From an uncultured Alphaproteobacteria bacterium (GTDB taxonomy: Bacteria; Pseudomonadota; Alphaproteobacteria; RF32; CAG-239), in NCBI GenBank assembly GCA_944391335.1, contig CALXTF010000002.1, positions 11,801 through 75,800 on the forward strand: a DNA stretch of 64,000 nucleotides. Reading direction: 5' to 3'. This document shows positions 14,519 to 54,796 of the stretch, one piece after another (position 1 is the stretch's first letter; every line of letters begins with the position of its first letter). The translations under genes and the position numbers were made by a program. The notes under the pieces are model-generated. The model did no database searches, was not told where the DNA came from, and was given only the letters and a program-made list of their open reading frames with translations.

Positions 14519-16297
14519 TTACATTTTTTTATATAAATCAGGAAGCAATTTTTCTTTTTTCTTTTCTTTCTGTTTTTGTTTTTTACTAATCCGGCTAAAA
14601 ACCTGCATAAAAGCTGCTGCATCAAAATTTGCATGACGTTTAGAATATAAAACAGCTTGCAGCTTTTTCAATTGATCCGTAAACACTTCATCTTCAACTA
14701 AAGAAGCTACATCGTTAAGATTATGAATTTCATGATCTGAAAAGATTTTTTCCGCCCACTCTATAACATTATCTCTAATAGCTCTTAAATCATTATTTCG
14801 AATAGCCTTACCGACGCTTACCGAAGATGAAGCCGGATTCGTTTTCTTATTATCTAGTTGTTTTTTAGGCGATACATGATGATAACCTAAAAAATAAGCA
14901 GCTAACAAACTAACGATGATTCCTCCTGCAAATGCTGCCAATAAATACCATATCATATAATCTGTTTTTTTTACGGCTGTAGCAGAGACAGAAGAATTAT
15001 TTTTTTGTTCCAGAGTTGCATCTTTTACTGTTTGAGATAAATTTTCATCAGGTATATTGACATTTACAATTTTTCCAGGCAGCACGTTAATTTTTACTTC
15101 AGGTAAAACAGCCTTTTCTATTTTATTTAATTGGACATTATACCAATAAACAACTATTTCAGGAAGGGTGATAAGACCGCTTTTCTCTGGAATATAAACA
15201 TTTTTCATTTTCATAAAGGAAATAACATCACCATCTTGTATTTTACTTTCAACGACTGGTTTTTCCGGATATTGTTTCATTCCTGAAATTTCCGGAAATT
15301 GAATTTCGGGAAGTTGGGTGTCAATAACGCCTGTTGCTTGTAAATAAATTTCTCGACTAACGGCTTCCCCACTTTTAAATTCAGGAATTTTTTGCTGCCA
15401 ATTTGATGTTAATTTTACATCTTTGGCGGGCAACCACCAACGTCCTTGATTTGTAACAGGAATTTTCTCCACTTCAATACTAATCGGACGCGCTTTTAGA
15501 TTTACGGGAACTCGTCGTCCAAACATTTCAAGACCGAAACCTGCATCATTTAAACCGCTAAAAGCTCCCAACAACCCTTGTAAAGAACTATTATAACGGT
15601 TATCAGCCGCGACATAATAACCGCTAAAACGAACCTCAGGTATTACCAATGATCCGCTTTTTTGAGGAAATAAAGCATAATTAAAAGTAATTTCACGCAT
15701 TTCAACGCCATCTTGAATTTTTGTAGAAATAACAGGATCACCTAAAACACGAATAATCCAATCATCTGCGTTATCCGCTAAAAATTGCGGAGCTGTTCCT
15801 TGCAACGCGGCATCCGTTGTTATGGTAAAACTATAATTTATTTGCTGTTGTACAAAGGGATGTGGGTTGTCTATATTTCGCGCAACCGTAAACTTTGGTG
15901 TCAATCTCTGATTATCCACTGTTGTTGGGACATTTGAAGCATCAACTACATTTAAAACCAAAGGACGGCTTTGCACATTATTCACAGAGAGTGATGGAAT
16001 TGTGTAACTGCCGATTTGTTCGGCTGCCATTGTCACACTCCAGATATAAGTTTTATCCATTTTCCCGTTACGATATGTTCCTTTGTAAGAATTTGAAACC
16101 ATATAAACCGTAAAATCTTTTTCTAAAAGCGAAAAATCCGGACGATTATTTTTAGGATCACCAGAATATTCTAAAGTTAGAACAAAAGTTTCCCCCACAG
16201 GCACAGGGTTTCGATTAAGTTTTGCGGTTAATGTATCTGCCTGTGCCGGAGAAGCTAATAATAATGCATATAAAAAAATCCACATATATTTTTTCAT
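14519..16297 (-). CDS. BatD-like (oxygen-tolerance family) protein
   Basis: Signal peptide, a long beta-rich ectodomain, a single C-terminal TM and a lysine-rich tail. Last gene of a Bat-type operon, with a TAATG overlap to the upstream gene. Confidence 0.75.
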   Translation of the reverse strand: MKKYMWIFLYALLLASPAQADTLTAKLNRNPVPVGETFVLTLEYSGDPKNNRPDFSLLEKDFTVYMVSNSYKGTYRNGKMDKTYIWSVTMAAEQIGSYTIPSLSVNNVQSRPLVLNVVDASNVPTTVDNQRLTPKFTVARNIDNPHPFVQQQINYSFTITTDAALQGTAPQFLADNADDWIIRVLGDPVISTKIQDGVEMREITFNYALFPQKSGSLVIPEVRFSGYYVAADNRYNSSLQGLLGAFSGLNDAGFGLEMFGRRVPVNLKARPISIEVEKIPVTNQGRWWLPAKDVKLTSNWQQKIPEFKSGEAVSREIYLQATGVIDTQLPEIQFPEISGMKQYPEKPVVESKIQDGDVISFMKMKNVYIPEKSGLITLPEIVVYWYNVQLNKIEKAVLPEVKINVLPGKIVNVNIPDENLSQTVKDATLEQKNNSSVSATAVKKTDYMIWYLLAAFAGGIIVSLLAAYFLGYHHVSPKKQLDNKKTNPASSSVSVGKAIRNNDLRAIRDNVIEWAEKIFSDHEIHNLNDVASLVEDEVFTDQLKKLQAVLYSKRHANFDAAAFMQVFSRISKKQKQKEKKKEKLLPDLYKKM

Positions 16298-18009
16298 TAT
16301 TTATCGTCCTTGTATCTGTTTTTTAGATATTCTTTACGAATAAAAGCTCGCAGCAAACCTCCTGCATCTTCCGGAATATCTCGAAATTGTTGTTCTCGCG
16401 CTTGTAGGGCTTCATTATATTCTTTCTTATTGTTTTCTTTTTCGTTTATTTGTTTTTCAAGCTCAGTTTGTTGATCTGACTTATTTTTTTGTTCCTCGGA
16501 TGTTTGTTTGTTTTGAGACTGTTTATCGGAATTATTATTTTTCTGTTCTAATTGTTGTTGCTGTTGATTATCTTCAGAAGCATCATTTTGATTTTCAGGT
16601 GATTGTTGTTCTTGCTTAGCGGCATCTGATGATTGTTGTTGTGTTTTATTCTGAGGAGTATTTTGATTATTATTTTGATTCTGATTATTATTTTTCTCGT
16701 TTTGGTTTTGATTATCGCTTTGCCCGCCAGACTGCTGTTGTTTCTGTTGCTGTTTAAGATATTCTAAGTTAAATTTAGCATCTTCATGATTAGGTTGTAT
16801 TTCAAGAACTTGTTCATATTTTTTGATAGCTTCTTCGATTTTACCGCTTTTAGCCAAAGCGTTACCTTGATTATAAAGACTTTCAACATCTTTACCGGCA
16901 AAATATTTATAGGCATTTTCGAAATCACCAAGACGATAATATGAAGAAGCTTTCCACGCCGGCAAATCAAATTTTTGAGCGGCTTGTTGAAATTCTTGAT
17001 TCTGAAAGGCTTTTATTCCTTCTTGATTGTGATTAAGAAAGAAACCGGCTTGGGCAGAAGTTGTACTTAATCCCCAAAATAAGAAAATCATAAAAATACC
17101 ATGACGAAAAAAATATAATGTACATATTAGAGGTAAGAATAATAGCCAATATCCTCCATCTTCCCATATTTCTTTTTCATTTTTTCCTTCTTTAAGATTT
17201 TTATCATTACTTTTATTTAGATTTTGAGCTAATTGATTTAAACCGGTAAGAACATCTACATATAATCCTCCGCCTTTTTCAGCAATCATTTTCAATTTTT
17301 CCGAAGTTTTAGCTCCGACATTAACGACATTGACACGAAACCCTTTAGCATAGGCTGCGGCTGCAGATATTATTGCCAGATTAAAATCTTGTCCAACATC
17401 TGCAGCTAAAACCACAATATTTCCTTCTTTCATTTGGGCTTCATTAAAACGCAAAACAGCATAATCTAAAGCACGATATAAACGATCTCCGTTTTCGGGC
17501 ATAATATCTAAAGTTACAGCAGCTAATAAATTATCGATAACTTTTTTATCAACAGTCAAAGGACTAATCAAAAAAGGTTCTTCCGTATAAACAATCAATC
17601 CGCTATCAGCATTATCAACAGATTTTAACAAATCAGAAATGGCGTATTTTGCTCGTGTTAATCGATTTGGGGTAACATCATCCGCATTCATATCGGAAGA
17701 TAAATTTAATAGGAACATTACAGGATTTTCAGTTAAAAAAACAGGTATGTATTTTTTTTGCCATGTTGGTCCGGCTAAAGAAATAATAGCACCGAGCATT
17801 CCCGTTAAGATCAAACCTGCGGCCAAACGTCTCTGTCGAGAAGATCCTTTGATTAATAAAAAATCAAGTAATTTTTTATCACACACGGCTTCCCAAGCGG
17901 AAACATTATTAAAGCCTGAAAAGAAACGAAACCAACCGATTATTGGAAAGATAACAGCTAACAACCACCACGGTCTTAAAAAATGGAAATTAACTATAAA
18001 TTCTGTCAT
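16297..18009 (-). CDS. BatB-like VWA plus TPR protein with a long Q/N-rich low-complexity tail
   Basis: N-terminal TMs, a VWA region, a TPR segment (YNQGNALAKSGKIEEAIKKYEQVLEIQPNHEDAKFNLEY), then about 100 aa of Q/N/K repeats. Confidence 0.8.
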   Translation of the reverse strand: MTEFIVNFHFLRPWWLLAVIFPIIGWFRFFSGFNNVSAWEAVCDKKLLDFLLIKGSSRQRRLAAGLILTGMLGAIISLAGPTWQKKYIPVFLTENPVMFLLNLSSDMNADDVTPNRLTRAKYAISDLLKSVDNADSGLIVYTEEPFLISPLTVDKKVIDNLLAAVTLDIMPENGDRLYRALDYAVLRFNEAQMKEGNIVVLAADVGQDFNLAIISAAAAYAKGFRVNVVNVGAKTSEKLKMIAEKGGGLYVDVLTGLNQLAQNLNKSNDKNLKEGKNEKEIWEDGGYWLLFLPLICTLYFFRHGIFMIFLFWGLSTTSAQAGFFLNHNQEGIKAFQNQEFQQAAQKFDLPAWKASSYYRLGDFENAYKYFAGKDVESLYNQGNALAKSGKIEEAIKKYEQVLEIQPNHEDAKFNLEYLKQQQKQQQSGGQSDNQNQNEKNNNQNQNNNQNTPQNKTQQQSSDAAKQEQQSPENQNDASEDNQQQQQLEQKNNNSDKQSQNKQTSEEQKNKSDQQTELEKQINEKENNKKEYNEALQAREQQFRDIPEDAGGLLRAFIRKEYLKNRYKDDK

Positions 18010-19010
18010 CAGCTTTCTCTCCTTTTAAGCCATATAGTTATAAAAGCCACTAATAACGCAGCCGCCAACGGCCAATAAAATAAGTCTTTTGCTTCACGCG
18101 TATATTGATTATCATTAGCACTTGGTTCCAACCGATTAATTTCCTCATAAATTTTTTTCAAACCCTCTGTATCATTAGCCCGAAAATAAGATCCTTGAGT
18201 TTCTGCGGCTAATTGTTTTAATCCTTCTTCATCAACATCATTTCCGGATAAGCGTATACCAAAGAAAGAATCAACAAAAGCCTGTTGAGAACCGACGCCA
18301 ATTGTATAAATTTTCACTTGTTCATTTTTAGCCAAATTAATAGCTTGAGGCAAACTTAAGCTACCATCGTTATTTTCTCCATCCGTCAATAAGATAATAA
18401 TTTTATCTTTTGTACCGTCATCATTTCGAATATTTTTTAAGGCCAAGCCGAGAGCGTCACCTATTGATGTAGAATTACCGGCCATACCGGCTTCCATTGA
18501 CCACAATATTTCGCGTACGGATTTTCTATCAAAAGTCACAGGCGATTGCAAATAAGCTCGTGTTCCGAACAAAACCAGTCCTATACGATCATTTTGCCGT
18601 TGTTGAATAAAATTATCCGCAGCTAATTTAACAGCGGTTAATCTATCGATTCGCTGGCGGTTAAGAATAAAATCAGGTTCACGCATAGAAGTTGATATAT
18701 CCATAACCAACATAATATCGCGTCCGTAATTTTTATTTTTCATGGGTTCTCCAAGCCATTGAGGCCGTGCGGCAGCGATTGTCAACAAACCCCATATAAC
18801 AAAGAGAAGGAATAATCCTTTATAATTGCTTTTAGATTGAGCATTTTTTCCCCATATACTTCCGCTTTGTTGATTAATATTGGCAATATCATTTAGAAAA
18901 GGAACTTTTAAAGCATCTCCGTGCAATCCTCGAACAGGTGGAAGCAATTGCCGAACGAGCCAAGGCAAAAGAAGCAACAAGAACATAATCGGATAAGCAA
19001 AAGTTATCAT
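18009..19010 (-). CDS. BatA-like VWA-domain membrane protein
   Basis: VWA MIDAS-type DISTSM and LLTDGENN motifs, with terminal TMs. The start at 19010 gives an ATGA overlap with the upstream gene. Confidence 0.85.
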   Translation of the reverse strand: MITFAYPIMFLLLLLPWLVRQLLPPVRGLHGDALKVPFLNDIANINQQSGSIWGKNAQSKSNYKGLFLLFVIWGLLTIAAARPQWLGEPMKNKNYGRDIMLVMDISTSMREPDFILNRQRIDRLTAVKLAADNFIQQRQNDRIGLVLFGTRAYLQSPVTFDRKSVREILWSMEAGMAGNSTSIGDALGLALKNIRNDDGTKDKIIILLTDGENNDGSLSLPQAINLAKNEQVKIYTIGVGSQQAFVDSFFGIRLSGNDVDEEGLKQLAAETQGSYFRANDTEGLKKIYEEINRLEPSANDNQYTREAKDLFYWPLAAALLVAFITIWLKRRES

Positions 19011-19459
19011 AAATTTTCTCCAATCCACTGACGACAAAAGGTGTAAAGATCGGTAATATCTTTTTCATGATAAACTTTAGAATTAGGATGGATATAAGGG
19101 GCATCAAGCAATAATCTGGCGGTTTTTCCCGTAATCTTACGATGTGTATGATTATTTAAAAAATCAATCCATTCCTGCCCAAAGACGGAAGCTGCGTTGG
19201 GATATTTATAAACACAAATGCGCCTAAGTATTTCAGACATTTTAACCGCCGATGAAAGATTCGAACTATAATTTTTTTCTAACAACTCAAGCGCATAACG
19301 TTTTTTACTTTTAAGCCATAGGAAGCGTCCCAAGACCGAGACGACGAGTAAAACCACTATTGTAATTATAATGATCCACCAACCATAAGCCAAAGGGAAA
19401 ATAGGTATATCTTCCACAGGTAAATGAATATCTCTTAATTCCGGCAAATTATCCTGCAT
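19007..19459 (-). CDS. DUF4381-like small membrane protein (Bat operon member)
   Basis: Single TM (WWIIIITIVVLLVVSVL) followed by a basic stretch. Sits directly upstream of batA, as in Bat operons. Confidence 0.6.
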   Translation of the reverse strand: MQDNLPELRDIHLPVEDIPIFPLAYGWWIIIITIVVLLVVSVLGRFLWLKSKKRYALELLEKNYSSNLSSAVKMSEILRRICVYKYPNAASVFGQEWIDFLNNHTHRKITGKTARLLLDAPYIHPNSKVYHEKDITDLYTFCRQWIGENL

Positions 19460-25660: not shown

Positions 25661-26101
25661 TTAATTTAAATTTTTCACCATACGAGCGAAGGTAATTCCA
25701 CTTTCTTCGAAGATATCACCTTCTTGTTGATAACCGAGTTTTTCATAGAAATGAACGACTGAAAGCATTGCATGCATAATGATACGAGAGAAGCCTGCTT
25801 CTTTAGCTCTTTTTTCGGCGTATTTGACCATTTCGCGGCCGATTCCCTCGCGTTGATATTTTGTATCGACAGCGACTTGCATAAGTCTGATATCCTCATT
25901 ATTAACTGGGACCAACATAAGTCCGCCGACGAGTTTATCATCTAGAGATTCGATACAACCGACATGAAGATAACTCATTTCGTTTTCACGGTATTTATCC
26001 AGAAATTTTAATCCGAGAGGTTCCAGAAGGATTTTATATCTTAATTCGACAAGTTCGTCATAACGAGAAGAACCAAAGTCAATATCAATTATTTTTTTCA
26101 T
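25661..26101 (-). CDS. GNAT-family N-acetyltransferase
   Basis: Acetyl-CoA motif QVAVDTKYQREGIGREMV. AGGAG lies 8 nt upstream of the ATG at 26101. Confidence 0.85.
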   Translation of the reverse strand: MKKIIDIDFGSSRYDELVELRYKILLEPLGLKFLDKYRENEMSYLHVGCIESLDDKLVGGLMLVPVNNEDIRLMQVAVDTKYQREGIGREMVKYAEKRAKEAGFSRIIMHAMLSVVHFYEKLGYQQEGDIFEESGITFARMVKNLN

Positions 26102-26229
26102 TCTCAAACTCCTTTCCGGCATATTATATAATTATCATAAATTAAGGCAACAATCAATAATATATTGCCATATTGTTTTTTTTACCCTATGAATTGAATA
26201 ATTTATAAAAGATAAGATAGGTAAATGAA

Positions 26230-28035
26230 ATGGTTGATGATTTAAGTTTAATTCGTAATTTTGCAATTATAGCCCACATAGATCATGGGAAATCGACGCT
26301 TGCGGATCGATTAATTGAATATTGCGGGGGCTTAAGCGAACGTGAAATGCAAGAACAAGTTCTTGATTCCATGGATATTGAACGAGAACGAGGGATTACC
26401 ATTAAAGCGCAAACCGTACGATTAAACTACCGTAGCAGAGATGGTAAGGTTTATCAACTTAATTTAATAGACACTCCCGGACATGTTGACTTTTCATATG
26501 AAGTGAGTCGATCACTTGCCGCATGCGAAGGCTCTATTTTAGTTATTGACGCGACACAAGGGGTAGAAGCACAGACATTAGCTAATGTTTATTTAGCCAT
26601 AGAAAACAATCATGAAATTATACCTGTTTTAAATAAGATTGACTTACCTTCAGCCGATTCACAAAAAGTCTGCCGACAAATAGAAGATGTTATCGGACTT
26701 GATGCTTCTGGAGCGATAGAAACATCGGGAAAGACGGGTTTAGGTGTTGAAGATCTTTTAGAAGCCATTGTCAACCGCCTTCCCGCACCTAAAGGAGATA
26801 AGGAAGCTCCTCTAAAAGCGTTATTAATAGACAGTTGGTATGACTCATATCTTGGTGTTATTATATTGGTTCGCATAAAAGATGGTATTTTGCGTAAGAA
26901 ACAACAAATACGCATGATGTCGAACAACGCGGTATATCAAATAGATAAAGTTGGTATATTTACTCCCAAAATGGAAGATGTTGAAGCGTTATATCCGGGA
27001 GAAATAGGATTTATCACCGCCAGTATAAAGAGTGTTGGGGATTGTCATATTGGCGATACGATTACAGACAACCGCCGTCCCTGTGATACGCCGCTGCATG
27101 GTTTCAAGGCTTCTGTTCCGGTTGTTTTTTGTTCTATTTTTCCTGTTGACAGCAGCCAATACGAAAATTTAAAAGATGCTTTATCAAAACTAAAATTAAA
27201 TGATGCCAGCATAGATTATCAAAATGAAAATTCTGCGGCGCTTGGACTTGGTTTTCGATGCGGTTTTCTTGGTCTTTTACATATGGAGATTATTCAAGAA
27301 CGCTTAAGTCGAGAATTTGATCTTGATTTAATAACCACGGCTCCTTCGGTTGCATATATATTACATTTAACCAACGGCAATCAACAAACTTTATGCAATC
27401 CTGCCGACATGCCTGATTTATCTTTGGTACAAGCAATTGAAGAACCTATTGTTCGTGCGACGATTTTAGTTCCGGACGAATATCTGGGTGCGGTTTTAAA
27501 ATTATGCAACGATCGACGGGGGATTCAAGAAGAATTAACTTATGCCGGCAGTCGAGCGATGGTTATTTATAAAATTCCATTAAACGAAATTGTTTTTGAC
27601 TTTTATGATCGATTAAAATCAATTACAAGCGGTTATGCGAGTTTTGATTATGAAATTATTGGTCATCAAATAGCGGATTTAGTAAAAGTACAAATTTTAA
27701 TCAATGAAGAACCGGTTGAAGCATTGGCTTTTTTATGCCATCGTTTAGAAGCGGAAAGTCGGGGACGGCAAATTTGTGAGAGATTAAAAGATTTAATTCC
27801 CAGACATTTATTTAAGATTCCGATTCAAGCGGCTATTGGCGGTCGTGTCATTGCTCGTGAAACGATATCTGCGTTAAGGAAAGATGTAACGGCAAAATGT
27901 TACGGCGGAGATATCACACGCAAACGTAAACTTCTTGATAAGCAAAAGAAGGGTAAACAAAGAATGAGGCAGTTTGGCAAAGTTGAAATTCCTCAATCAG
28001 CTTTTATTGAAGCCTTGAGAATTAGCGACAAGTAA
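26230..28035 (+). CDS. lepA: Elongation factor 4
   Basis: [30 protein letters not shown], and the LepA-specific C-terminus [18 protein letters not shown]. Confidence 0.97.
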
Positions 28036-28100
28036 ATTAAGCCTTGAGAAAAGTGAGTCTATTGTTTATACTGGAAGATATTATTAAGGAGGACTTATTA

Positions 28101-28886
28101 ATGAAATCAATTATATTTCTTATAGCAGGACTATTGTTTTTATATCCGACAAAAGTTTATAGTCAAGCCGTAGAAGGTGTTCAATCGTTTAGCCAACCGG
28201 AAGGTTCATGGCGAAGAGAAGTACAAGAAGCTAAAAAGGAGCAAACAAAAATAAAACCATTACAACGATTTTATGACGATTCGGGAAAGTTTGCCATTGA
28301 GAACATAACTAAAGCGGAACAAATTTTTTGTTATGAAGTTTTTCCATTAGATGCAAAATACGAAGGATATACAATAGATGGTTTTCCGATTCGTGGTTTT
28401 TGTGGTATAATTAATGAAGAAGTTAAAAATTTAATTGTCGAACATTTTTTTGCTTCCGAGACGAATGTTGTATTTGATAAATCGGAAGAATGTGTTATTG
28501 AACCGAAAATAATCATTCGTTTTGTTCGCGGGGTTGATTATACGGATGTTTTATTGTCTTCTCCCTGTCATTCTTTTGCCGTTTTTTATGGGGGCAATGT
28601 TCATGTTTATAATTATAAACCGGCGGCAGCGATTATTGATGCCTTAGTTAAAGCTTTTAACAATAAACATATTGAATTTATTTCTCCTGCATTGCTTAAT
28701 CAACTCTTACCTATTGGCGTTATCCAAAATGAACAGCAGCGTAAATTGATTAATCGCCGCAATGAACCCATACGCAAATGGATAGAAAAAGCGGAAGAAA
28801 AAGAAATCAAAAGAGCTGAAGAGAACAAAAAGAATAATAGTGGGTGGAATAAATTAAAAATGCGCAACTTAAACACTGCGCCATAA
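28101..28886 (+). CDS. Secreted hypothetical protein
   Basis: AGGAGG RBS 8 nt upstream of the ATG at 28101. Signal peptide MKSIIFLIAGLLFLYPTKVYSQA. Confidence 0.75.
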   Translation: MKSIIFLIAGLLFLYPTKVYSQAVEGVQSFSQPEGSWRREVQEAKKEQTKIKPLQRFYDDSGKFAIENITKAEQIFCYEVFPLDAKYEGYTIDGFPIRGFCGIINEEVKNLIVEHFFASETNVVFDKSEECVIEPKIIIRFVRGVDYTDVLLSSPCHSFAVFYGGNVHVYNYKPAAAIIDALVKAFNNKHIEFISPALLNQLLPIGVIQNEQQRKLINRRNEPIRKWIEKAEEKEIKRAEENKKNNSGWNKLKMRNLNTAP

Positions 28887-28908
28887 AACTGATCCAACCT
28901 ACTTTCAT

Positions 28909-28945
28909 CCCCGATTTGAAACTTTTAAATCGGGGTATTTTTATT
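28909..28945 (+). terminator. Intrinsic terminator
   Basis: Stem ccccgattt/aaatcgggg followed by TATTTTTAT. Confidence 0.7.
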
Positions 28946-29109
28946 CTTATCCAACCGATTTTTGAACAAAAAAATGCTTGATAAAAAGGAAGCAGGACTT
29001 TTTAATTAAAGAAAAGAAAATTATCTTGCAATAAAACAAATACCATAATATGATACCGACTTTAAGGAAAGTAATTTCCTTATTCGAGAGTATTAATCTT
29101 TCACAACCA

Positions 29110-29151
29110 AAACAAAACCTTTCGAAACAGATGTTTCGAAAGGTTTTGTTT
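29110..29151. terminator. Long perfect hairpin terminating the giant pilin-like gene
   Basis: Stem aaacaaaacctttcgaaac/gtttcgaaaggttttgttt (19-20 bp), 15 nt downstream of the stop codon on the minus strand. Confidence 0.75.
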
Positions 29152-29166
29152 ATCACGCCTAAAATA

Positions 29167-32100
29167 TTACCACGGATCATTGTATTTAAGTGTGCTATCA
29201 TTCAAACGATTTATATAATCAGTATTCGTATTCTCTTTATCCTTTTTATTCCAATATTCCCTGGGGTTATTGAGTTGATCATAAGTTGTATCAACCATAT
29301 CTACATTGAAACCTTCTCTGTTAAAATAACAATACACGGTTGCATAACCTTCTAATTGTCTATAATACACAGGATATATATTCCAATAAACCGTATCACT
29401 TCCTTCGTCAACATTTCCACTACCGAAAGCGACACCATTTATATTACCTTTGGCAACCTTCTTTAAAAAATCACCATAATAGCTTTCAGGATAAAGGAAG
29501 CCCATAATCACTCCCCAACCGGTAAATTCACCTGAGTCATCTTTACAGCTATTATTAAGATCAAATCCGTCACAATGAGGAACAACCATTGCTCTTAACC
29601 ATGTACTTTTTTGAAAAGTCAGAGGTTGAACGGGTTCCGCATTTTCAACATCAGTTCTAGGCGTTCCAGCTCCATCAGGACCAGGTAAATTCCAATAAAG
29701 ATAAGGATTTGTATGGGGAACTATATCAATACGTCCCATAGTTTGATCATCATAAGGTGTTCCGGCTTCCGCCATTGACCAACCGGATGGATTAACCGTA
29801 ATCACTTTAGAATAATTTGGTGGACAAATCGGTGTTGGCACAAAGCCAAGATAAGGAGAAGTTGCTGTTTTAAAAGCAGTATTTTCATTTGTAATTTCAT
29901 ACATTCCCTCTTTAATTTCCTTAACTGTCTTGGTTTGCCAAGGTGTTTCTTCCTTAAAAGTATTATTGACGACATAAATTCCTTTATTAATAAAATCAGG
30001 TAAAATATCGCTTAACCTTGCACCTCCACGAGTCGTCAATTTAATATCATGCATTACCGAAGTATAAGCCGGATTAACTTCATAACGATCATAAGGGGTT
30101 ACCTTACCATAATTTGTGTCGGTTCTGTCTAATACACCATTTTCCGGCACGACATGAGAAATAAAACGATTTGCAGCTATATAACCAACTGAATTGGTTT
30201 CACTAGCATAATCCCCGACTATCGTACTGTTGGCCAAACGGCTACCGTTGGCACTAGCGATATTGATTGCCCCGCGACGGATATAAACGCTGCCGCGGTC
30301 ATCCGTTACCTTAGGAGTGCCATCTTCTGCCGTTGTCGGAATAGCATCATATGTGTCATTATTATCCACGTGCAAGACGATATCCCCCTTATTTAGTCCA
30401 TCTTCCGTGGTCAAAATCTGAAAATCACCTTTACCGACATAAAGCGATGGATTACCTATACTACCCCCTGTGATCTTGCCGTCTTCATCTACAACAAAAG
30501 CCGGATTATCCGGATAATCCTCCTTCCCTGTAACATCATAATCATATATAGCAAAGCCACCGGCAAAACGTGATGAAATAAGGCCTTCTTCCCTAGCTGC
30601 TTCAATATCGACGACAGGTACTATTTTATCATCAGATTCAGATTCAGATTCAGATATAGCACTAATACTAAAATCCATATCACCTAAAGCAACCAAACCT
30701 CTATCACCCCTTGAATATAGTTGATCATGTGTTATACCTTGATCTCCTGTATATCTTGCATCTCTTGATAAAATACGCATTTCGTCAGTTACAGAGTCTA
30801 TATAACCATAACCATCTTCACCTTTACTAATATTATAAGCACGCAACATATCATCTTGAATGGAGACCACTCCTTTGCTATGGAATTTTCCATTTTCACC
30901 AATTGTTGAAAGAGAAACAGCTTTTTCTGCACCTATTTTAATCTGTCCAGAGGCCGGATCCTTAGAAGTACCATTATTAGAAGTATCATTTGCATCAACT
31001 TCCTCAACTAAACTAACATTATTGCCTGAGCGTAAACTGATACCTTTTTCATGATACATACTGATACCTGCCATGATATTATTATTATTATCATCTTCCT
31101 CTACAATCTGCAATCGATATTGAGTACTCGTGTCGCCAGCACTTGTGTCGGTACTTGGGGTTACTTTTCCAACCAATAACCGTCCCGTATTATCACCATC
31201 ACTTTTCTCTGCAATTAAATAAAAATCTTCATCGTTTGTTGCTGTATTAAAACTATTCCACGCAACACCGGCTCTAAGCTTTGCCGCATCAACATTATAA
31301 GTCTTAAGATGAGGCGTCCTTAAACTATCTTTAACAAAAGCCGGTCCATTTACGGTTAAAGCGTGTCGACCTTCTGAATTATTTGTGCCACTACCATTTG
31401 AATTATTTGTGCCACTACCATTTGAATTATTAGTGTCACTTGGGTTTTTGGGAGTACCGTTTGTATCATATACATAACTTGTATAAGAACCTGTATAAGC
31501 ATTACCACCGCCAATAACCACCGCTGGTGTTTTTGAGTTCCACTGGTTGGTAGAATTATCTTTATAAGTTGTATCAGAATTGACGTCATTATTTCTGACA
31601 CTCAAAGCTCCATTTAAAAGATTAACACTTGAATCTTGGGCGGCAATTAAATTTTGAGAAGTGGTAGATGTCGTTCCATCTTCTTCGGAACTGTTTGTTT
31701 TATATGCAAAATTCATTGATTTATTTTCTTTATCTACCGTCAACAAAACACCGGCAGTCTCTCTGTCAATATTACCATATTCCAGTTTGGAAGATGTGAC
31801 ACTAAATACGCTTTTTCCTTTAGTAGTAGTTGTTACCGTATTATTAGGATCCGTCGAATCTGTTGTAGTTTTTGTTTCATAATACTTGATACCACCATCT
31901 CCACTATCATTTTCTTCTTTTACAGTAAATAACGAAGATACGGCGGCTAAATTCCCTTCCAAAAAGGCTCCTCCTTTATTGCCTATATATAAGGAATAAT
32001 CGAGGTTTGAAAGAGAATTGTCGTCATTAAACGGAATTGCAATATTTTCTTCCGGTCTCATGTCTGTTGAATTATTTTCCGCGCCAACCATCCATTCCGT

Positions 32101-33015
32101 ATCCGGCATCATAATAATTTGGTTGACTTGACGAATATTGTGATTTTTATCGTTATAGCTCATAAACAGGTCTGTTTCCATGGAGTTGAGCAAATTGTCA
32201 TTTTGCGGTTCATATTTACGGTGCAGAACGTCTTCATTAGCCAATCCTTGTGAAGATATAGGTTGTAATGAAGAAATAACAAAAGTATTCTCCGCTAAAT
32301 TCATATCTAACTCATCATCACCGTCTAAACTCCAGATTCCCTGCGCTCCCATAATTTTACCGCTGACAACATTACCATCTTCATCTTCATAATTTGCCAT
32401 TTTATAACCACCATTACTACCAACCATCGTAGCAATACGAGCGACACGGGTTGAAGGGAATTCTTCGCCATCATGAGGAACAGCGGTTACAAAACCGGTT
32501 ATTGTTTGTGCTATAACTTTATCATCTTCATCTTCCCCCCCCACTTCTGAAGCGGTAGTTTTTTTCAAAATGACCTGAAAAGAATTACTATCGCTTTCCG
32601 AAGACGCGAACAATTTGCTGTCTTGCGTTTTTCCATTGCTGTCCAAAAACCCGTAAGGCAGATATTCACACAAGTGAGAGACATCAAAAGTATATGTATC
32701 TGTTTGGCTTGTGACGCCGCTGCCGCTATCACTGCTTGAATCGACAGGATTTCCATAATCGACATTATCATCATTGCAATTGTTGACAACTTCTTCACCC
32801 GCAGCTATGCGAGAGAAATTATCTTTAATATAAGCATCCATAGCATTGGCTAAAATACGCAATTGATTGGAAGCATTAATATCTTGCAATTCAGTTGTTC
32901 GTTCCGCGGCTTTTTTATACAGAATCGGGGTAACCATGGCAATAAGCCCTAACATGGCCATTGCTTCCACCAGCATGGTACCGGTTTCATTGATTTTATT
33001 AAACATCTTTCTCAT
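29167..33015 (-). CDS. Giant (1282 aa) protein with a prepilin-type (class III) N-terminal signal; candidate modular type IV / Tad-like pilin or pseudopilin
   Basis: N-terminus MRKMFNKINETG|TMLVEAMAMLGLIAMVTPILY: a basic leader ending in G, Glu at +5, and a 20-aa hydrophobic helix. The remainder is T/S/N/D/G-rich with short tandem repeats and a Cys/aromatic-rich C-terminus. Confidence 0.6.
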   Translation of the reverse strand: MRKMFNKINETGTMLVEAMAMLGLIAMVTPILYKKAAERTTELQDINASNQLRILANAMDAYIKDNFSRIAAGEEVVNNCNDDNVDYGNPVDSSSDSGSGVTSQTDTYTFDVSHLCEYLPYGFLDSNGKTQDSKLFASSESDSNSFQVILKKTTASEVGGEDEDDKVIAQTITGFVTAVPHDGEEFPSTRVARIATMVGSNGGYKMANYEDEDGNVVSGKIMGAQGIWSLDGDDELDMNLAENTFVISSLQPISSQGLANEDVLHRKYEPQNDNLLNSMETDLFMSYNDKNHNIRQVNQIIMMPDTEWMVGAENNSTDMRPEENIAIPFNDDNSLSNLDYSLYIGNKGGAFLEGNLAAVSSLFTVKEENDSGDGGIKYYETKTTTDSTDPNNTVTTTTKGKSVFSVTSSKLEYGNIDRETAGVLLTVDKENKSMNFAYKTNSSEEDGTTSTTSQNLIAAQDSSVNLLNGALSVRNNDVNSDTTYKDNSTNQWNSKTPAVVIGGGNAYTGSYTSYVYDTNGTPKNPSDTNNSNGSGTNNSNGSGTNNSEGRHALTVNGPAFVKDSLRTPHLKTYNVDAAKLRAGVAWNSFNTATNDEDFYLIAEKSDGDNTGRLLVGKVTPSTDTSAGDTSTQYRLQIVEEDDNNNNIMAGISMYHEKGISLRSGNNVSLVEEVDANDTSNNGTSKDPASGQIKIGAEKAVSLSTIGENGKFHSKGVVSIQDDMLRAYNISKGEDGYGYIDSVTDEMRILSRDARYTGDQGITHDQLYSRGDRGLVALGDMDFSISAISESESESDDKIVPVVDIEAAREEGLISSRFAGGFAIYDYDVTGKEDYPDNPAFVVDEDGKITGGSIGNPSLYVGKGDFQILTTEDGLNKGDIVLHVDNNDTYDAIPTTAEDGTPKVTDDRGSVYIRRGAINIASANGSRLANSTIVGDYASETNSVGYIAANRFISHVVPENGVLDRTDTNYGKVTPYDRYEVNPAYTSVMHDIKLTTRGGARLSDILPDFINKGIYVVNNTFKEETPWQTKTVKEIKEGMYEITNENTAFKTATSPYLGFVPTPICPPNYSKVITVNPSGWSMAEAGTPYDDQTMGRIDIVPHTNPYLYWNLPGPDGAGTPRTDVENAEPVQPLTFQKSTWLRAMVVPHCDGFDLNNSCKDDSGEFTGWGVIMGFLYPESYYGDFLKKVAKGNINGVAFGSGNVDEGSDTVYWNIYPVYYRQLEGYATVYCYFNREGFNVDMVDTTYDQLNNPREYWNKKDKENTNTDYINRLNDSTLKYNDPW
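30632..30655. repeat. Hexanucleotide repeat (TCAGAT)x4 inside the giant gene (encodes SESESE)
   Basis: Read directly from the sequence. Confidence 0.9.
31376..31440. repeat. 24-bp tandem repeat, about 2.7 copies, inside the giant gene (encodes NNSNGSGT repeats)
   Basis: gaattatttgtgccactaccattt occurs twice perfectly, then as a diverged partial copy. Confidence 0.9.
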
Positions 33016-33033
33016 GGTCTTTCTCCTGTAAAA

Positions 33034-33915
33034 TTAGAATCTGGACATATAAACCAAACAATAATCACAACTTGAATACATATTATCTTGGGGATTTTGG
33101 GGATCATATTCCTCATTAGATTGTCTTAAACTACCACATACGTTGGCAAAAGAACGATTTCCCATTGAGGTTTCTGAAATATAATTCGGGATAGGTGTAT
33201 AAAATTGTCCGCCTTGTCCATAAACCCCCATATTTGTATCAATTTCCTCAGTATAAGCAGAATCAGCTGTATAAATATCATCAGATAATTCATCTCGATC
33301 AATAGCATATCCTAAACCATTTGTATAACCGGTTGTTGTTTTCATTGAACCAAGCAACCTTGCTCCTGGTTTACCGGTACGAATATCCTGCCATTTAGAA
33401 GGTACGCATCCGTATGTAAGCACATAAACCACAGCCGAAGGATCGTTGCAGCAATTAGATCCATTCCCCAAATCGGTATTTTCATCTTCTGTTTCGCCGC
33501 CGGAACCTTCACCGGAATCGCCCTCGCCGGCGGAGCCTCCCTCTCCTGTTGGCAAACCTGATGTACATAACGAAGGCAAAGCACCGGCACCTGTTTGTTC
33601 TAAATTATTTCTATTCAAACAATATATCCATGTCGTAAATTTTGCCAGACCGCTATCTTGTTGAAATCCGTAAGGTAAATCATTTTTCAACATATCCGCG
33701 GTTAATTCTCCGGGCCAATAATTTAAATCATCCAAACCAGAAGATCGACTGTGTTTAGATATATAACTCATTGCTGCTCGATGTTGAACATAAAGTTTCG
33801 TTACGACTGTTTGCGCCTGCGGTTCGATATATAATTGTTCAATATCTGGACGTATAGACGTATTCATCGCAAAAAGAGCAGCAATCAAAGTTGCTATAAT
33901 AACCCATAAATACAT
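33034..33915 (-). CDS. Membrane-anchored, Cys-rich protein, paralogous to the N-terminal region of the giant pilin-like protein
   Basis: Starts directly with a hydrophobic helix, MYLWVIIATLIAALFA; there is no leader because an in-frame stop lies 8 codons upstream. Shares the LPYGFxxDSG motif with the 1282-aa protein. Has a G/E/S-rich acidic linker and 9 Cys. Lies 19 nt upstream of the giant gene. Confidence 0.7.
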   Translation of the reverse strand: MYLWVIIATLIAALFAMNTSIRPDIEQLYIEPQAQTVVTKLYVQHRAAMSYISKHSRSSGLDDLNYWPGELTADMLKNDLPYGFQQDSGLAKFTTWIYCLNRNNLEQTGAGALPSLCTSGLPTGEGGSAGEGDSGEGSGGETEDENTDLGNGSNCCNDPSAVVYVLTYGCVPSKWQDIRTGKPGARLLGSMKTTTGYTNGLGYAIDRDELSDDIYTADSAYTEEIDTNMGVYGQGGQFYTPIPNYISETSMGNRSFANVCGSLRQSNEEYDPQNPQDNMYSSCDYCLVYMSRF

Positions 33916-34126
33916 AGGCGTATCCCATTTAATACACTAATTCAATTGTATTCTAACATAAACTTCTTTAAAAAAAAAGCAAATTAAAATACTTAATTTT
34001 TAATTTCACATATTTGTAACATCTCAAAAAAATAAAAAATCGGCTTATAAACTTATATTTGTCTTTGCTTGATAAAAAAAATGTTTTACATTAATCATAT
34101 ATATGCTTTAGGGAGATCAATAAACA

Positions 34127-34282
34127 ATGGTAAAAGTTAATCAAATTACTTACCCAAAACATAAAAAACTCTTACGGCGGATTATCTTAATACTTGTTAT
34201 TGCCGCTGTTTGCACAATATGTTGGAATCTGATTGATAATCCTTCTTCTTTGCCAACAGAGGAAATAAAATATGATATCTGA
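34127..34282 (+). CDS. Small single-TM ORF (51 aa), possibly a FliL-like remnant
   Basis: Not in the ORF track because it is under 60 aa. GGGAGA RBS 8 nt upstream. Sequence MVKVNQITYPKHKKLLRRIILILVIAAVCTICW. Its stop overlaps the start of the next gene. Confidence 0.4.
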   Translation: MVKVNQITYPKHKKLLRRIILILVIAAVCTICWNLIDNPSSLPTEEIKYDI

Positions 34283-34982
34283 AAATTACTCTGATGATCC
34301 CGCCGTCTTAACTGCAGAAGAAATTAACTTTTTGCTCAAACCAAAAGTATCTCCTTTTATGGAAGAGCAAACCATAAATACTTTGGCTGCTTTAATAATA
34401 AAAAAATTACATCCTTTATTCCCCTCTTCAAGCGTTATTTCGGCAAAGATAGATCAAACACATAAAATAAATCAAAATAATTATATTTATAAAATATCCT
34501 TTTTTAAAAAAGATTTTTTTTTACAACTTAGCATCGCCGACGCAGCAACACTTGTTAATACTGCTTTAGGGTGTTTTAAACTTTCCCTTGTCTCTCAACC
34601 GCTTGGAAAAATATCACTGGCTGTCGTCAATCAATTTATCAATTTAATTGCAAAAGCAATTGCTCAAACTTTTCATCTTTCCGAAAACAATTTTAGAATT
34701 ACTCAAGTAAATAATCTTATTGATAAAAACTATTGTACTCTGGTAATTAATATCAATAATATTCCCATATGTTTTTCTTTATATGGCGATTTTTTAACCA
34801 CAACCAATGCCGTTATACACTTTAAGCCTTTCAATATACCTATTGAAAATATCGCGCAATGGAAAAAAGGGTCTATAATCTCCTTGCCATCCAATCAAGC
34901 TCAATTAATTATTCCCGAAAAATTGACAACCGCAACTCCTACCGCGCAAAACAAAAACCTATATACTGTTAAATTGATTTAA
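34272..34982 (+). CDS. FliM/FliN-like flagellar switch-type protein (short, 236 aa)
   Basis: N-terminal LTAEEINFLLKP resembles the FliM CheY-P-binding peptide LSQxEIDALL. The C-terminal WKKGSIISLPSNQAQLIIPEK...LYTVKL resembles a SpoA/FliN domain. Confidence 0.45.
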   Translation: MISENYSDDPAVLTAEEINFLLKPKVSPFMEEQTINTLAALIIKKLHPLFPSSSVISAKIDQTHKINQNNYIYKISFFKKDFFLQLSIADAATLVNTALGCFKLSLVSQPLGKISLAVVNQFINLIAKAIAQTFHLSENNFRITQVNNLIDKNYCTLVININNIPICFSLYGDFLTTTNAVIHFKPFNIPIENIAQWKKGSIISLPSNQAQLIIPEKLTTATPTAQNKNLYTVKLI

Positions 34983-34995
34983 AAAGGCAACTAAA

Positions 34996-35343
34996 ATGAC
35001 ACATATCGAATTTTGGATTAACATCATAACTTTAATTCTTCTTTTTCCCGCGATTTTTTATGCGGCCATACTTTCCCGTCAAATCCGACAACTGCAAAAA
35101 AATCAGGAATTAATGTTTGAATTAGCAAAAAAACTTCAATTACTGGCTCAAAAATATGAAAAAGAAAAAAATCCCACCGCAGCAACGGTTATTTCTCAAA
35201 TTCAAACTCCAAACGATTCTCTAATTTATGATAATATTCCAAATGAACCCCATTTTGAAAAAATTTTTTCCATGTCAACATCAAATGGACAGACTTCTAC
35301 TGCCGAACAAGAACTTCTTGAAGCTTTACGCTCAATTAAATAA
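34996..35343 (+). CDS. Single-TM coiled-coil protein (DUF6468-like position in alphaproteobacterial flagellar clusters)
   Basis: N-terminal TM and a helical middle. Sits between the FliM-like and MotE-like genes. The family call rests on context only. Confidence 0.45.
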   Translation: MTHIEFWINIITLILLFPAIFYAAILSRQIRQLQKNQELMFELAKKLQLLAQKYEKEKNPTAATVISQIQTPNDSLIYDNIPNEPHFEKIFSMSTSNGQTSTAEQELLEALRSIK

Positions 35344-35355
35344 GGATTATTGATC

Positions 35356-35826
35356 ATGAAAAAATCATCTTTATTTCTTGTTTTCTTAACTTCCGTTTTA
35401 TTAGTATTCGCTTTAGTTAAAGGGTATCGAATTATTCACCACTTGCCGCTTCAACCACCTCATATAACAAATCGGCACACTCCAAAATATAAACAAACAC
35501 CTCATAATGATAAAATTCAACTTGAACAAGCTATTCGTCGAAAACTTGATGCCGATGCCAAAACAATAACACCATATGAAAAATTTATTCCTTCCGATAA
35601 AAAAATAAATGACAGCTTTTTCTACGAAAGACGCTTGGCAAATATCTATACCCAGATGTCTCCTAATCGCGCCGCTCAAATTATTGAAACAATGGAAAAA
35701 GCTCAAGCCGCTTTTTTACTAAAATCCATGCGTGCCGAAGATGCCGCGGCTATTATGTCACACATGGAAACACAAAAAGCAAAAGAAATTACGGAATTTA
35801 TGCTAAAAGCAACTCAACTGCAATAA
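35356..35826 (+). CDS. MotE/FlbB-like protein (MgtE-N-type helical domain)
   Basis: Signal/anchor followed by SPNRAAQIIETMEKAQAAFLLKSMRAEDAAAIMSHMETQKAKEI. AAGGA RBS 9 nt upstream of the ATG at 35356. Confidence 0.6.
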   Translation: MKKSSLFLVFLTSVLLVFALVKGYRIIHHLPLQPPHITNRHTPKYKQTPHNDKIQLEQAIRRKLDADAKTITPYEKFIPSDKKINDSFFYERRLANIYTQMSPNRAAQIIETMEKAQAAFLLKSMRAEDAAAIMSHMETQKAKEITEFMLKATQLQ

Positions 35827-35835
35827 AATAAATAA

Positions 35836-37845
35836 ATGGATGAAAAATTTAAAATTATAAGTCCTTTTGAACCTGCCGGAGATCAACCAACGGCTGTTAA
35901 TGAGCTTTGTCAAGGTTTAAAAAGAGGAGAAAAAAATCAAGTCCTGCTTGGCGTCACCGGCTCGGGGAAAACTTTTACTATGGCCAAAATTATTGAACAA
36001 ACCCAAAGACCCGCTCTAATTATGGCTCCAAATAAAATTTTGGCGGCTCAACTTTATAGCGAAATGAAAGAATTTTTTCCTCACAACCACGTTGAATATT
36101 TCGTTTCATATTATGATTATTACCAACCTGAAGCGTATATTCCCAAAACAGACACTTATATTGAAAAAGACTCCGCTATTAATGAACAAATCGATCGAAT
36201 GCGTAACGCTGCAACACGCAGTATTTTAGAATACCGCGATGTTATTATAGTCGCTTCCGTATCTTGTATATACGGCTTGGGAGATGTTGCCTCTTATTCT
36301 GCAATGACCTTAGAATTAAAAACAAATGACGAAATCGCTCCTCAAAATATTTATCAAAGATTAGCCGAATTACAATATGAAAGAAACCAACTTAATTTTA
36401 TTCGTGGAACATTCCGTGTGCAAGGCGATATTTTAGATATCTTTCCGGCTCACTTGGAAGATCGCGCATGGAGAATTTCTTTTTTCGGAGATGAAATTGA
36501 AGATATTTCCGAATTTGACGCCCTAACCGGAAAGAAAATTACATCTTTAGAAAGAGTCATTGTTTATCCTGCCAGCCACTATGTCACGCCCAGACCGACA
36601 CTTTCACAAGCAATTTCAAGGATTAAACAGGAATTACAACCCAGATTAGCCTATTTTCGTGACAATAACAAATTGCTTGAAGCGCAAAGATTAGAACAAA
36701 GAACACGTTTCGATTTAGAAATGTTGGAAACGACAGGCCATTGTAAAGGTATTGAAAATTATTCTCGTTATTTAACCGGCCGCGCTCCAGGAGAACCTCC
36801 ACCGACATTATTTGAATATCTGCCGCAAGATGCTCTATTATTTATTGATGAAAGTCATATTTCCATTCCACAAATCGGAGGAATGTATCATGGTGATCGT
36901 AATCGTAAAGGAACTTTATCGGAATATGGTTTTCGTTTACCTTCCTGTTTAGATAATCGTCCTCTTAAACTTGAAGAATGGGATCAAATGAGACCGCAAA
37001 CAATTTTTGTTTCCGCCACTCCCGGAGATTGGGAACTTGAACAAACCAAGGGAAATTTTGTTGAACAAGTTATTCGTCCTACCGGTTTGGTTGATCCTAT
37101 GTGTTTTGTCCGCGGAATCGAAAATCAAATTGATGATTTAATGCAAGAATGTCAAAAAAACATTCAAAAGGGTGAACGGGTTTTAGTAACAACACTTACA
37201 AAAAAAATGGCAGAAGATCTAACCGAATATCTAAATGAAAATGGTATTAAAGTCAGATATATGCATTCGGATATTCAAACCCTTGAACGTATTGAAATTA
37301 TAAGAGATTTGCGGATGGGACTGTTTGATGTTTTGGTGGGTATTAATTTATTACGAGAAGGACTGGATATTCCGGAATGTTCTCTTGTTGCTATTTTAGA
37401 TGCCGATAAAGAAGGTTTTTTACGATCCACACGTTCCTTGATACAAACAATCGGACGTGCGGCTCGTAATGCCGAAAGCAGAGTTATTCTCTATGCCGAT
37501 AAAATAACAACTTCTATAAAAGAGGCTCTTGATGAAACACAACGACGCAGAAATAAACAACTTCAATACAATTTAGAACATAACATCACCCCTCAAACAA
37601 TAAAGAAAAGTATTTCTTCGGCTTTAAGTGAAATGACGGCAATAGATTATATAAACGATAAAACCGAACAACCAGGTAAAGTAGATGATATTGAAAAACA
37701 AATTAAAGAATTAACAAAGTTGATGAAAGAAGCCGCACAAAATTTAGAATTTGAACAAGCCGTTATATATCGTGATAAAATAAAAGCTCTCGAGTTATTG
37801 GCTATGAGAACTTATGAAAACGCCATTTTTATAAAAGGAAGCTAA
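35836..37845 (+). CDS. uvrB: Excinuclease ABC subunit B
   Basis: [10 protein letters not shown], helicase motifs, and a C-terminal UVR domain ([16 protein letters not shown]). Confidence 0.97.
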
Positions 37846-52896: not shown

Positions 52897-52956
52897 TTTT
52901 TATGCGAAATTTTTTAAAATTTATATTTCTGATATTAATCACAAAGGAGAAGAAAT

Positions 52957-53805: not shown

Positions 53806-53821
53806 TAAGAAAGGGACGGCG

Positions 53822-54112
53822 ATGTTTAAGGTAAATATGATGTCAATAATAAAAGTAATTTCAACTATTTTTTTTGTTTTTTTAGGTTACTTTGCCATCT
53901 ATTCAATGGCTAAATCCCAAGCATCGCTGATTCCTGGTTATATATGTATTTTTATGTTGATTGTTATTGATTGGGCAATCGATTATATTTTGATCAAAAA
54001 AGGAAAAGAAAACTCACCATACTTTGATCCGGAACATCATTGGAAATATAGTCAGCTGATAGGTATCGTTGATTGCCTGATTGTCATAATAATGTACCGC
54101 TATTTATTATAA
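53822..54112 (+). CDS. 96-aa three-TM membrane protein, paralog 1
   Basis: AAGGGA RBS. Nearly identical to the copies at 54154 and 54486 apart from patches in TM1 and TM2. Confidence 0.75.
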   Translation: MFKVNMMSIIKVISTIFFVFLGYFAIYSMAKSQASLIPGYICIFMLIVIDWAIDYILIKKGKENSPYFDPEHHWKYSQLIGIVDCLIVIIMYRYLL

Positions 54113-54153
54113 CCACCTTGTTGACGGAATAAATTAATAAGAAAGGAACGGCG

Positions 54154-54444: not shown

Positions 54445-54485
54445 CCACCTTGTTGACGGAATAAATTAATAAGAAAGGGACGGCG

Positions 54486-54776: not shown

Positions 54777-54796
54777 CCACCTTGTTAACGGAATAA

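Follow-up and report, generated by a model that had tools for sequence, protein, structure and literature searches.

A predicted giant PilV-like modular pilin and its leaderless partner in uncultured gut Alphaproteobacteria

Results

Organization of the two-gene operon and its family

We analyzed a 64-kb stretch of DNA (hereafter the window; contig CALXTF010000002.1 of assembly GCA_944391335.1, positions 11,801 to 75,800) from an uncultured alphaproteobacterium of the RF32/CAG-239 clade. The window has about 35% G+C and is part of a 109.5-kb metagenome scaffold with housekeeping genes. Its open reading frame (ORF) list contains two adjacent genes on the minus strand. One of them (29167-33015, -) encodes a protein of 1282 aa, hereafter the giant protein, which we describe as a putative PilV-like modular pilin. 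The gene upstream of it (33034-33915, -) encodes a 293-aa leaderless, pilin-like protein, hereafter the partner. A preliminary description of this DNA, made from the sequence alone, had reported both ORFs, and we found them at the same places with the same translations. The operon junction between the two genes (33016-33033, -) reads TAA-TTTTACAGGAGAAAGACC-ATG from the stop of the partner gene to the start of the giant gene. It holds an AGGAGA ribosome-binding site and measures 18 nt, one less than the 19 nt given before. Related loci likewise keep a short spacing between the partner gene and the giant gene. An assembly artefact had been raised as a possible explanation for the long ORF. The ORF is no such artefact: the identical giant protein is present on two contigs, and intact orthologues occur in independent assemblies from at least 266 species.

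The giant protein belongs to a large family. A word-indexed search returned 298 relatives. In an exhaustive search of a representative library, the first 370 residues matched 381 clusters at 50% identity, and the best 150 clusters, which were those listed, all had the giant-type architecture (790-1414 aa) or were obvious fragments. The members that we scored span 861-1414 aa, and the last search added one member of 1492 aa. Two regions are conserved, one from residue 1 to about 370 and the other at about 850-1282; between them, both sequence and length vary. When one genome per species was scanned, relatives were found in 266 stretches, of which 80 were kept. Almost all of these 80 are labelled as uncultured Alphaproteobacteria, 'Azospirillum sp.', Rhodospirillales or Candidatus Scatocola, and they come from the gut or rumen of human, mouse, chicken, deer, yak, goat and reindeer. 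In a large clade of uncultured Alphaproteobacteria from gut and rumen, the giant gene belongs to the core genes and is inherited vertically. The source annotation of the family proteins is 'hypothetical' in all cases, and literature searches on pili in the RF32/CAG-239 clade gave nothing useful. Two family loci (L021 and L073) are labelled as Bacteroidaceae and Lactobacillaceae metagenome-assembled genomes, yet their neighbouring genes show alphaproteobacterial synteny; these are probably mis-binned contigs.

A class III signal precedes a PilV-like pilin module

The giant protein starts with a basic leader, MRKMFNKINETG (codons 1-12, 32980-33015, -), which ends in an invariant Gly and is followed by TMLVEAMAMLGLIAMVTPILY, as quoted in the preliminary description. 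Cleavage by a prepilin peptidase is predicted after G12. Across the family, the leaders have 8 to 27 aa, a freely variable sequence and a net charge between 0 and +5. Three positions behind the variable part are invariant: Gly(-1), Ser/Thr(+1) and Glu(+5), the last being E17 in the giant protein. The +1 residue is Ser or Thr rather than Phe or Met throughout. The stretch TMLVEAMAMLGLIAMVTPILY is nearly invariant among members that share less than 40% identity. The approximately 45 residues after the leader, with the pattern [ST][LM][LM][VI]EA[LM]AML[GA]LI.MVTP.LYKK.AERT.ELQDIN, are almost invariant even at less than 30% overall identity. The motif leader-G-[ST]xxxE-A was present in 219 of the 226 members of at least 850 aa, a frequency far above chance. 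Five of the remaining seven are N-terminally truncated gene calls, and the other two deviate only after the Glu. A variable leader combined with an invariant Gly and helix is the pattern expected for cleavage at the Gly and for a helix constrained by packing, unlike that of a Sec signal-anchor. The preliminary description had proposed a prepilin-type (class III) signal. The invariant Gly and Glu and the PilV homology described below support this signal on a real pilin module, and we found no support for the alternative of a Sec anchor.

The predicted pilin module (codons 13 to about 305, 32101-32979, -) has Thr at +1, Glu at +5, a hydrophobic alpha1-N and a long alpha1, followed by a beta-sheet. 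It contains the motifs YLPYGF, R..RIA.M.GSNGGY, G.QGIW and LHRK...LN.MET.L.M. By hhalign (99.2% probability, E 7.4e-20), the family profile matched PilV of a Citrobacter plasmid; the alignment has 229 columns and pairs residues 1 to about 305 with PilV 1-232. The motifs were in register: YLPYGF with YLPTGF, RASRIASMIGSNGGY with AARKIATRIGADGGF, and GxQGIW with GSLGAW, together with the shared LYRK..P.LNTM.T.L.MG. Since YLPYGF aligns to YLPTGF of PilV, the LPYGF motif pointed out in the preliminary description is a PilV-family motif. In tblastn searches of 72,556 plasmids, the first 282 residues of a homologue matched 2190 records. Among the 15 plasmid matches listed, 13 were annotated as pilV, one as 'shufflon protein' and one as 'hypothetical protein', with 92-98% query cover and 24-27% identity. 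The first 300 residues of the giant protein itself gave six plasmid matches (tblastn, E 0.01-9), all six of which were pilV. In addition, the Shufflon_N profile (PF04917) matched four of 42 diverse members (best E 2.2e-9), and two homologues lay in the gathering region of this profile, one of them (P0083) with 28.9 bits against a cutoff of 27.5.

The two proteins of the window had no Pfam, NCBIfam or PHROG match. No match to Flp_Fap, TadE or Tad(G) was found for the giant protein at E<=1 or for the 42 members at E<=0.1. The AlphaFold2 (AF2) model of residues 1-640 placed a helix at residues 2-72 and strands at 75-178, and its predicted local distance difference test score was about 80-90 up to residue 250. 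The profile comparisons show that residues 1 to about 305 are a predicted pilin module homologous to PilV, not a Sec anchor. The PilV homology, combined with the lack of an Flp, TadE, Tad or N_methyl match, points to a module of the type IVb PilV kind, which would be neither a Tad nor a classical type IVa module. The pilin identity had been given as either type IV/type II secretion or Tad. The pilin module stands and is refined to a PilV/Shufflon_N type IVb module; the Tad side found no profile match. The notion of a modular pilin with a very large extra region also held, with a PilV-like part of about 305 residues fused to about 950 further residues.

The variable stalk and the conserved C-terminal domain

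The pilin module is followed by a stalk rich in Ser, Gly, Asp, Asn and Thr (codons ~331-850, 30466-32025, -), which is poorly conserved and variable in length and is predicted to be beta-rich in the AF2 half-models. It contains two tandem repeats that had been noticed before and were confirmed: NNSNGSGT, with a 24-nt unit repeated 2.8 times (31375-31440), and SESESE, with a 6-nt unit repeated four times (30632-30655). In some members of the family, the middle region matches Bactofilin, LbH, DUF2345 and Gp5_C, which are beta-helix repeats, and phage tail-fibre PHROGs.

The C-terminal domain (codons 851-1282, 29170-30465, -) includes YEVNPAYTSVMHDIKLTTRGGARLSDILPDFINKGIYVV, the invariant C1064 and C1229, and the terminal RLNDxxLKYxDPW. 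The Cys/Trp/Tyr motifs ascribed to this region in the preliminary description are present in the translation. The longest invariant stretches of the family sit in these C-terminal ~430 residues; the end of the domain is conserved as RLNDPxLKYxDPW, and Trp is the final residue in 220 of 226 members. The domain gave no Pfam, NCBIfam, PHROG or PDB sequence match, the sequence-profile search of the PDB returning solely a chance-level match to EtpA (E 0.05). Foldseek returned no match at E<=0.001, either for the two AF2 half-models in the PDB or for the C-terminal half in BFVD. The non-significant hints were CofB, trimeric phage or Bdellovibrio fibres, and VgrG. As modelled, the C-terminal ~430 aa match no known fold.

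The partner, a divergent, leaderless and putatively pilin-like protein

The partner starts with MYLW and a hydrophobic helix, contains eight Cys, including a C-terminal C..C pair, and ends with ..CLVYMSRF. Nine Cys had been counted earlier. Two other features were found as described: an in-frame TAG lies eight codons upstream of the start, with no leader, and the translation contains an acidic Gly/Ser/Glu linker. The partner proteins of the family span 214-317 aa and start invariantly with MY(L/I)W. In the family alignment, M1, Y2, W4 and several Cys are invariant, and there are conserved Cys pairs, one of which is in the C-terminal strand. The partner family has no leader, no Gly(-1) and no Glu(+5), and in this it departs from a class III signal.

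BLASTP of the partner against the giant protein gave nothing, and the partner had no Pfam or PDB match. By hhalign, the partner family aligned with the giant family at 79% (E 1.6e-5) over about 80 columns, residues 8-89 against 18-128. The aligned part comprises the hydrophobic helix, an amphipathic helix and YLPYGF. Comparison of the partner family with every R64-type pil protein gave a signal for PilV only, which was weak (20-26%) and in the same register. The preliminary description had called the partner a paralogue of the N-terminal region of the giant protein. The likeness was borne out at the profile level over about 80 N-terminal columns, including YLPYGF; the BLASTP result was nil and the likeness does not extend over the whole N-terminal region. 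Given a profile-level likeness without a BLASTP match, it makes more sense to regard the partner as a divergent, leaderless pilin-like protein than as a clear paralogue of that whole region.

At 76 of 84 loci, a homologue of the partner gene lies directly upstream of the giant gene, and in most of the eight exceptions a contig end cuts the giant gene short. Three far-diverged subfamilies also have the partner at this position (hmmsearch E 1e-27 to 1e-31), although the genes around the pair are unrelated there. Every lineage examined thus has a partner gene in front of the giant gene.

The part behind the pilin module diverges quickly between strains

We compared the window with the corresponding locus of a second strain (L090). 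Over 20 kb of flanks, the two are 99.6-100% identical, and codons 1-330 of the giant gene have no nonsynonymous difference. Codons 331-1282 are 86-94% identical at the DNA level, with clustered replacements and in-frame indels, one of which is the loss of one 24-nt repeat unit. The ratio of nonsynonymous to synonymous substitution rates (dN/dS) was 1.5-3.0 in each bin of codons 331-1050. Pooled over these codons, there were 88.7 nonsynonymous and 11.3 synonymous differences (odds ratio 2.4, Fisher p=0.004). Two more strain pairs behaved alike, with flanks 94-99% identical and the post-pilin part 83-84% identical. These comparisons show that the post-pilin part diversifies quickly between strains, which the preliminary description had not foreseen.

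No shufflon-like or silent cassettes and no repeated inverted cassettes were found within 26000-36000, and no recombinase was found among the neighbouring genes. Without shufflon-like cassettes or inverted repeats, the variation is attributed to substitution, recombination and repeat slippage. A diversity-generating retroelement is an unlikely source, since the differences extend over about 3 kb and there is no reverse transcriptase nearby.

Pilus machinery in the window and at related loci

The window and the loci L001-L088 were searched with regular expressions for class III N-termini, the PilB/GspE-type Walker A motif and the GxGD motif of A24 peptidases. Three later loci were checked through Pfam tables only, and the Pfam tables cover about 84 kb of the contig. 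Neither the 64 kb of the window, nor a further ~20 kb of the same contig, nor the DNA up to 10 kb on either side of 87 related loci yielded a secretin, a platform protein, a pilus ATPase, a prepilin peptidase or another class III protein; these searches did not extend to whole genomes. For the 64 kb, the Pfam tables and motif searches agree with the preliminary description, which had reported no pilus machinery there. The motif search likewise found no other class-III-like N-terminus in the window, and no Tad genes were seen in any locus examined.

A gene for a ComEC/Rec2-type competence channel (DUF4131 and Competence domains; 6914-8872, -) lies among genes without Pfam matches, and there are no competence-pilus genes beside it. 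Taken alone, the ComEC gene proves nothing about pilus machinery. A BatA-D-like operon (DUF4381, VWA, VWA+TPR and BatD; 14519-19459, -) is unrelated, and its VWA genes are not Tad or pilus genes.

A third gene and other features of the neighbourhood

A third gene (28101-28886, +) encodes a 261-aa secreted protein with a Sec signal, four invariant Cys and a conserved GWNKLK tail. At most loci with a homologue, the gene for this secreted protein of about 250 aa lies about 100 nt 3' of the giant gene and on the same strand; in the lineage of the window it is inverted, with the orientation opposite to that of the giant gene. The unit is made up of three genes in most related genomes, which had not been foreseen. 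The third gene is absent from three divergent subfamilies. Its family has no Pfam or PDB match, and hhalign comparison with every R64-type pil protein revealed no relation.

The 3' flank of the giant gene comprises 280 nt before the next gene. It contains an inverted repeat of 20 nt with 100% complementarity and a 2-nt loop (29110-29151, strand unassigned), 15 nt 3' of the giant stop. This hairpin is likely the transcription terminator of the operon. On the other side, an A+T-rich intergenic region of 356 nt (33916-34271, strand unassigned) adjoins a divergent fliM/N-like gene and is the presumed promoter region of the operon. A sigma-70-like match in it (33972-33945, -) was not above chance.

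The divergent genes form a small flagellar cluster (34272-35826, +) that encodes three proteins: one of 236 aa, with orthologues that match FliM/FliMN_C, one of 115 aa (DUF6468-type) and one of 158 aa (MgtE_N/FliG_N-like). Divergent flagellar genes of this kind (fliL, fliM, DUF6468 and MgtE_N-like) adjoin the operon in part of the clade only. The rumen clade and the three divergent subfamilies have no flagellar neighbours; there, the gene pair lies among housekeeping genes. Judging from this synteny, the flagellar adjacency may be regarded as incidental, and we rejected a functional tie to the flagellum because the synteny is lineage-specific. In other lineages, a gene for a 1054-aa protein without Pfam match is inserted between the flagellar cluster and uvrB (L004, 2920-6084). 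At a further locus of the same species (L087, 3186-4586; about 7 kb beyond window position 1), a 466-aa product matches YscJ_FliF_C, FliG_M and FliG_C. It is an apparent fusion of the FliF C-terminus with FliG, and its gene adjoins FliN-, FlhF- and FlhG-like genes.

Farther away in the window (52177-55069, +), genes for a 239-aa and a 282-aa protein without Pfam match are followed by three tandem genes for a 96-aa membrane protein (92-96% identical, 332-nt period), after which comes a gene for a membrane protein of 90 aa that contains Cys. A sister strain has a single copy of the 96-aa gene. The region looks like a toxin with amplified immunity genes. Three tandem non-coding units of about 247 nt, 77-95% identical (55121-55850), lie between the membrane-protein genes and a small helix-turn-helix-like ORF. 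The unit has no Rfam match at gathering thresholds and could be a repeated small-RNA or regulatory element.

Discussion

A candidate tip adhesin of a type IV filament

We propose, with a probability of about 0.6, that the giant protein is a modular pilin that is displayed as an adhesin at the tip of a type IV filament encoded elsewhere. In this model, the basic leader would keep the precursor in the inner membrane until a prepilin peptidase, also encoded elsewhere, cuts after Gly12. The invariant alpha1 helix with its Glu5 would then dock into the core of a type IV filament, whose assembly machinery would likewise be encoded elsewhere. Because of its bulk, the giant protein could hardly fit into the fibre body, and a position at the tip would follow. 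In the manner of CofB/TcpB, PilV and modular pilins, it would probably cap the fibre and prime its assembly, and it would display the stalk and the C-terminal domain as an adhesin. The outer part of the giant protein evolves very fast, which is to be expected of a surface adhesin. The leaderless partner, having neither Gly(-1) nor Glu5, would need no cleavage and may pair with the giant pilin in a tip complex, perhaps by accepting the invariant C-terminal peptide of the giant protein.

Several points weigh against this proposal. We infer the tip location, the adhesin function and the role of the partner from the comparisons presented here. No machinery gene was found in the regions searched around the giant gene, unlike plasmid pilV, which closes a complete pil operon that includes a peptidase gene. 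The N_methyl motif (IPR012902) was not matched by the giant protein at E<=1 or by the 42 members at E<=0.1. In addition, the AF2 model of the N-terminal half had no significant Foldseek match to a pilin; CofB appeared repeatedly, at non-significant E values of about 1.5-4.6. Finally, the dN/dS estimate of about 2.4 is based on few synonymous changes.

Other readings of the gene pair can be weighed against the same evidence. The giant protein and its partner may use a pilin fold independently of a pilus to build a fibre or anchor of their own, at the surface or across the envelope, with the N-terminal helices serving as a membrane anchor or bundling element. We consider this unlikely. It is consistent with a gene pair that is self-contained and conserved in very different contexts, with no machinery near any of the 87 loci, and with a partner that lacks both leader and Glu5. 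The beta-helix repeats of the trimeric-fibre type (Gp5_C, DUF2345 and Bactofilin) in some members point the same way, as do the trimeric fibres among the best, non-significant fold matches. However, cleavage by a peptidase and packing into a filament leave just such a signature, with Gly(-1) and Glu(+5) invariant and the leader free to vary, and a diderm cell needs a secretin or an equivalent to expose a 1200-aa protein. It is also common for machinery genes to lie away from minor-pilin genes. Going further, the giant protein and the partner might together constitute an undescribed, self-contained surface-display device, such as a single-copy 'one-subunit pilus' or a trimeric fibre with a minimal or unrecognised machine, with the partner in place of the major pilin and the invariant C-terminal peptide as a lock between the two; we think this decidedly improbable.

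The host is alphaproteobacterial, and the Flp pilus is the usual type there. It is thus conceivable that the giant protein is an accessory pilin of a Tad (type IVc) system, equivalent to TadG/CpaL, processed by a TadV/CpaA-type peptidase and priming or capping an Flp pilus. The peptidases of type IVb and Tad systems are of the same short type, which suits this reading. TadG/CpaL is itself a large minor-pilin-like protein important in Tad fibre assembly (PMC13533445). Against a Tad pilin stand the homology to PilV, the Shufflon_N matches among the 42 members, all without an Flp, TadE or Tad(G) match at E<=0.1, and the lack of Tad genes at any locus; we hold it to be a doubtful alternative. Least likely of all is a flagellum-associated envelope protein with an uncleaved inner-membrane anchor that serves as an accessory in the periplasm or the basal body. 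This reading is suggested by the fliM/N-like, DUF6468 and MgtE_N-like genes that are divergent from the operon in the window and in many relatives. The rumen clade and the three divergent subfamilies lack these neighbours, and both the PilV homology and the strain-level diversification fit a surface adhesin, not a motor part. We therefore give the flagellar reading very little credence.

Comparison with known pilins and tip proteins

The closest known relative is PilV, the minor pilin and tip adhesin of the type IVb thin pilus of the IncI1/IncI2 plasmids R64 and TP114, which is homologous to the N-terminal ~300 residues of the giant protein. Both have the leader, the hydrophobic alpha1 and the motifs YLPxGF, RIA..G..GG(Y/F), G..G.W and LYRK..P.LNTM.T.L.MG. 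Both also combine a constant N-terminal pilin part with a variable part that is presumed to bind a ligand, and PilV variants act as adhesins (PMC9045228). The two differ in size, PilV having about 430 aa and the giant family 861-1414 aa among the members scored, and in the source of variation, which is the shufflon (inverted repeats and Rci) in PilV and point changes, indels and repeat slippage in the giant family. Moreover, the C-terminal segments of PilV are variable, whereas the extreme C-terminus is the most conserved part of the giant family. The pilV gene is carried by a conjugative element, as one of the genes pilN-pilV of a type IVb pil operon; the giant gene is chromosomal, lies outside any pil operon and is paired with the leaderless pilin-like gene.

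CofB and TcpB, of about 430-520 aa, resemble the giant protein in that they are large minor pilins, in their case of type IVb pili, with a pilin module and beta-rich extra domains. They share no significant sequence or fold match with it, and the giant gene adjoins no machinery gene at the loci examined. CofB of CFA/III from enterotoxigenic Escherichia coli is located at the pilus tip (as cited in PMC9045228), and TcpB of Vibrio cholerae initiates pilus assembly (PMC5207764). The modular pilins, such as PilB and PilC of Streptococcus sanguinis, follow the same design as the giant protein, with a bulky module grafted on a pilin module, and are thought to be exposed at the tip. The survey of modular pilins used the IPR012902 motif, and its largest case had 860 residues (PMC8179133). 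Unlike the pilins of that survey, the giant family has no detectable N_methyl motif and is larger, and the extra modules of the giant protein match no known domain.

A further analogy is offered by PilC/PilY1 and TadG/CpaL. These are tip proteins of about 1000 aa in which an invariant C-terminal peptide is required for the tip complex to form and acts by beta-strand addition to a minor pilin (PMC13533445). The invariant ..RLNDPxLKYxDPW end of the giant family and the adjacent small pilin-like protein recall this arrangement. By analogy, this suggests that the ..KYxDPW end of the giant protein may be added as a beta-strand to the partner. PilC/PilY1 are not pilins, having no class III signal, and no sequence similarity between them and the giant protein was detected.

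Significance

Modular pilins and PilV are already known. The new features are the size of the pilin, up to 1492 aa compared with the extreme of 860 aa in the modular-pilin survey (PMC8179133); a chromosomal, clade-wide and vertically inherited branch of a PilV module known from conjugative plasmids; the fixed pairing with a leaderless pilin-like protein; a conserved domain of 430 aa whose fold is not recognisable; and the lack of linked machinery. The pairing and the invariant C-terminal peptide offer a new case for how tip complexes are built in type IV filaments, and the 430-aa domain invites structural work. The clade is common in the guts of humans, rodents, birds and ruminants. The family described here provides a candidate adhesin that is universally conserved in this clade and that diversifies quickly between strains.

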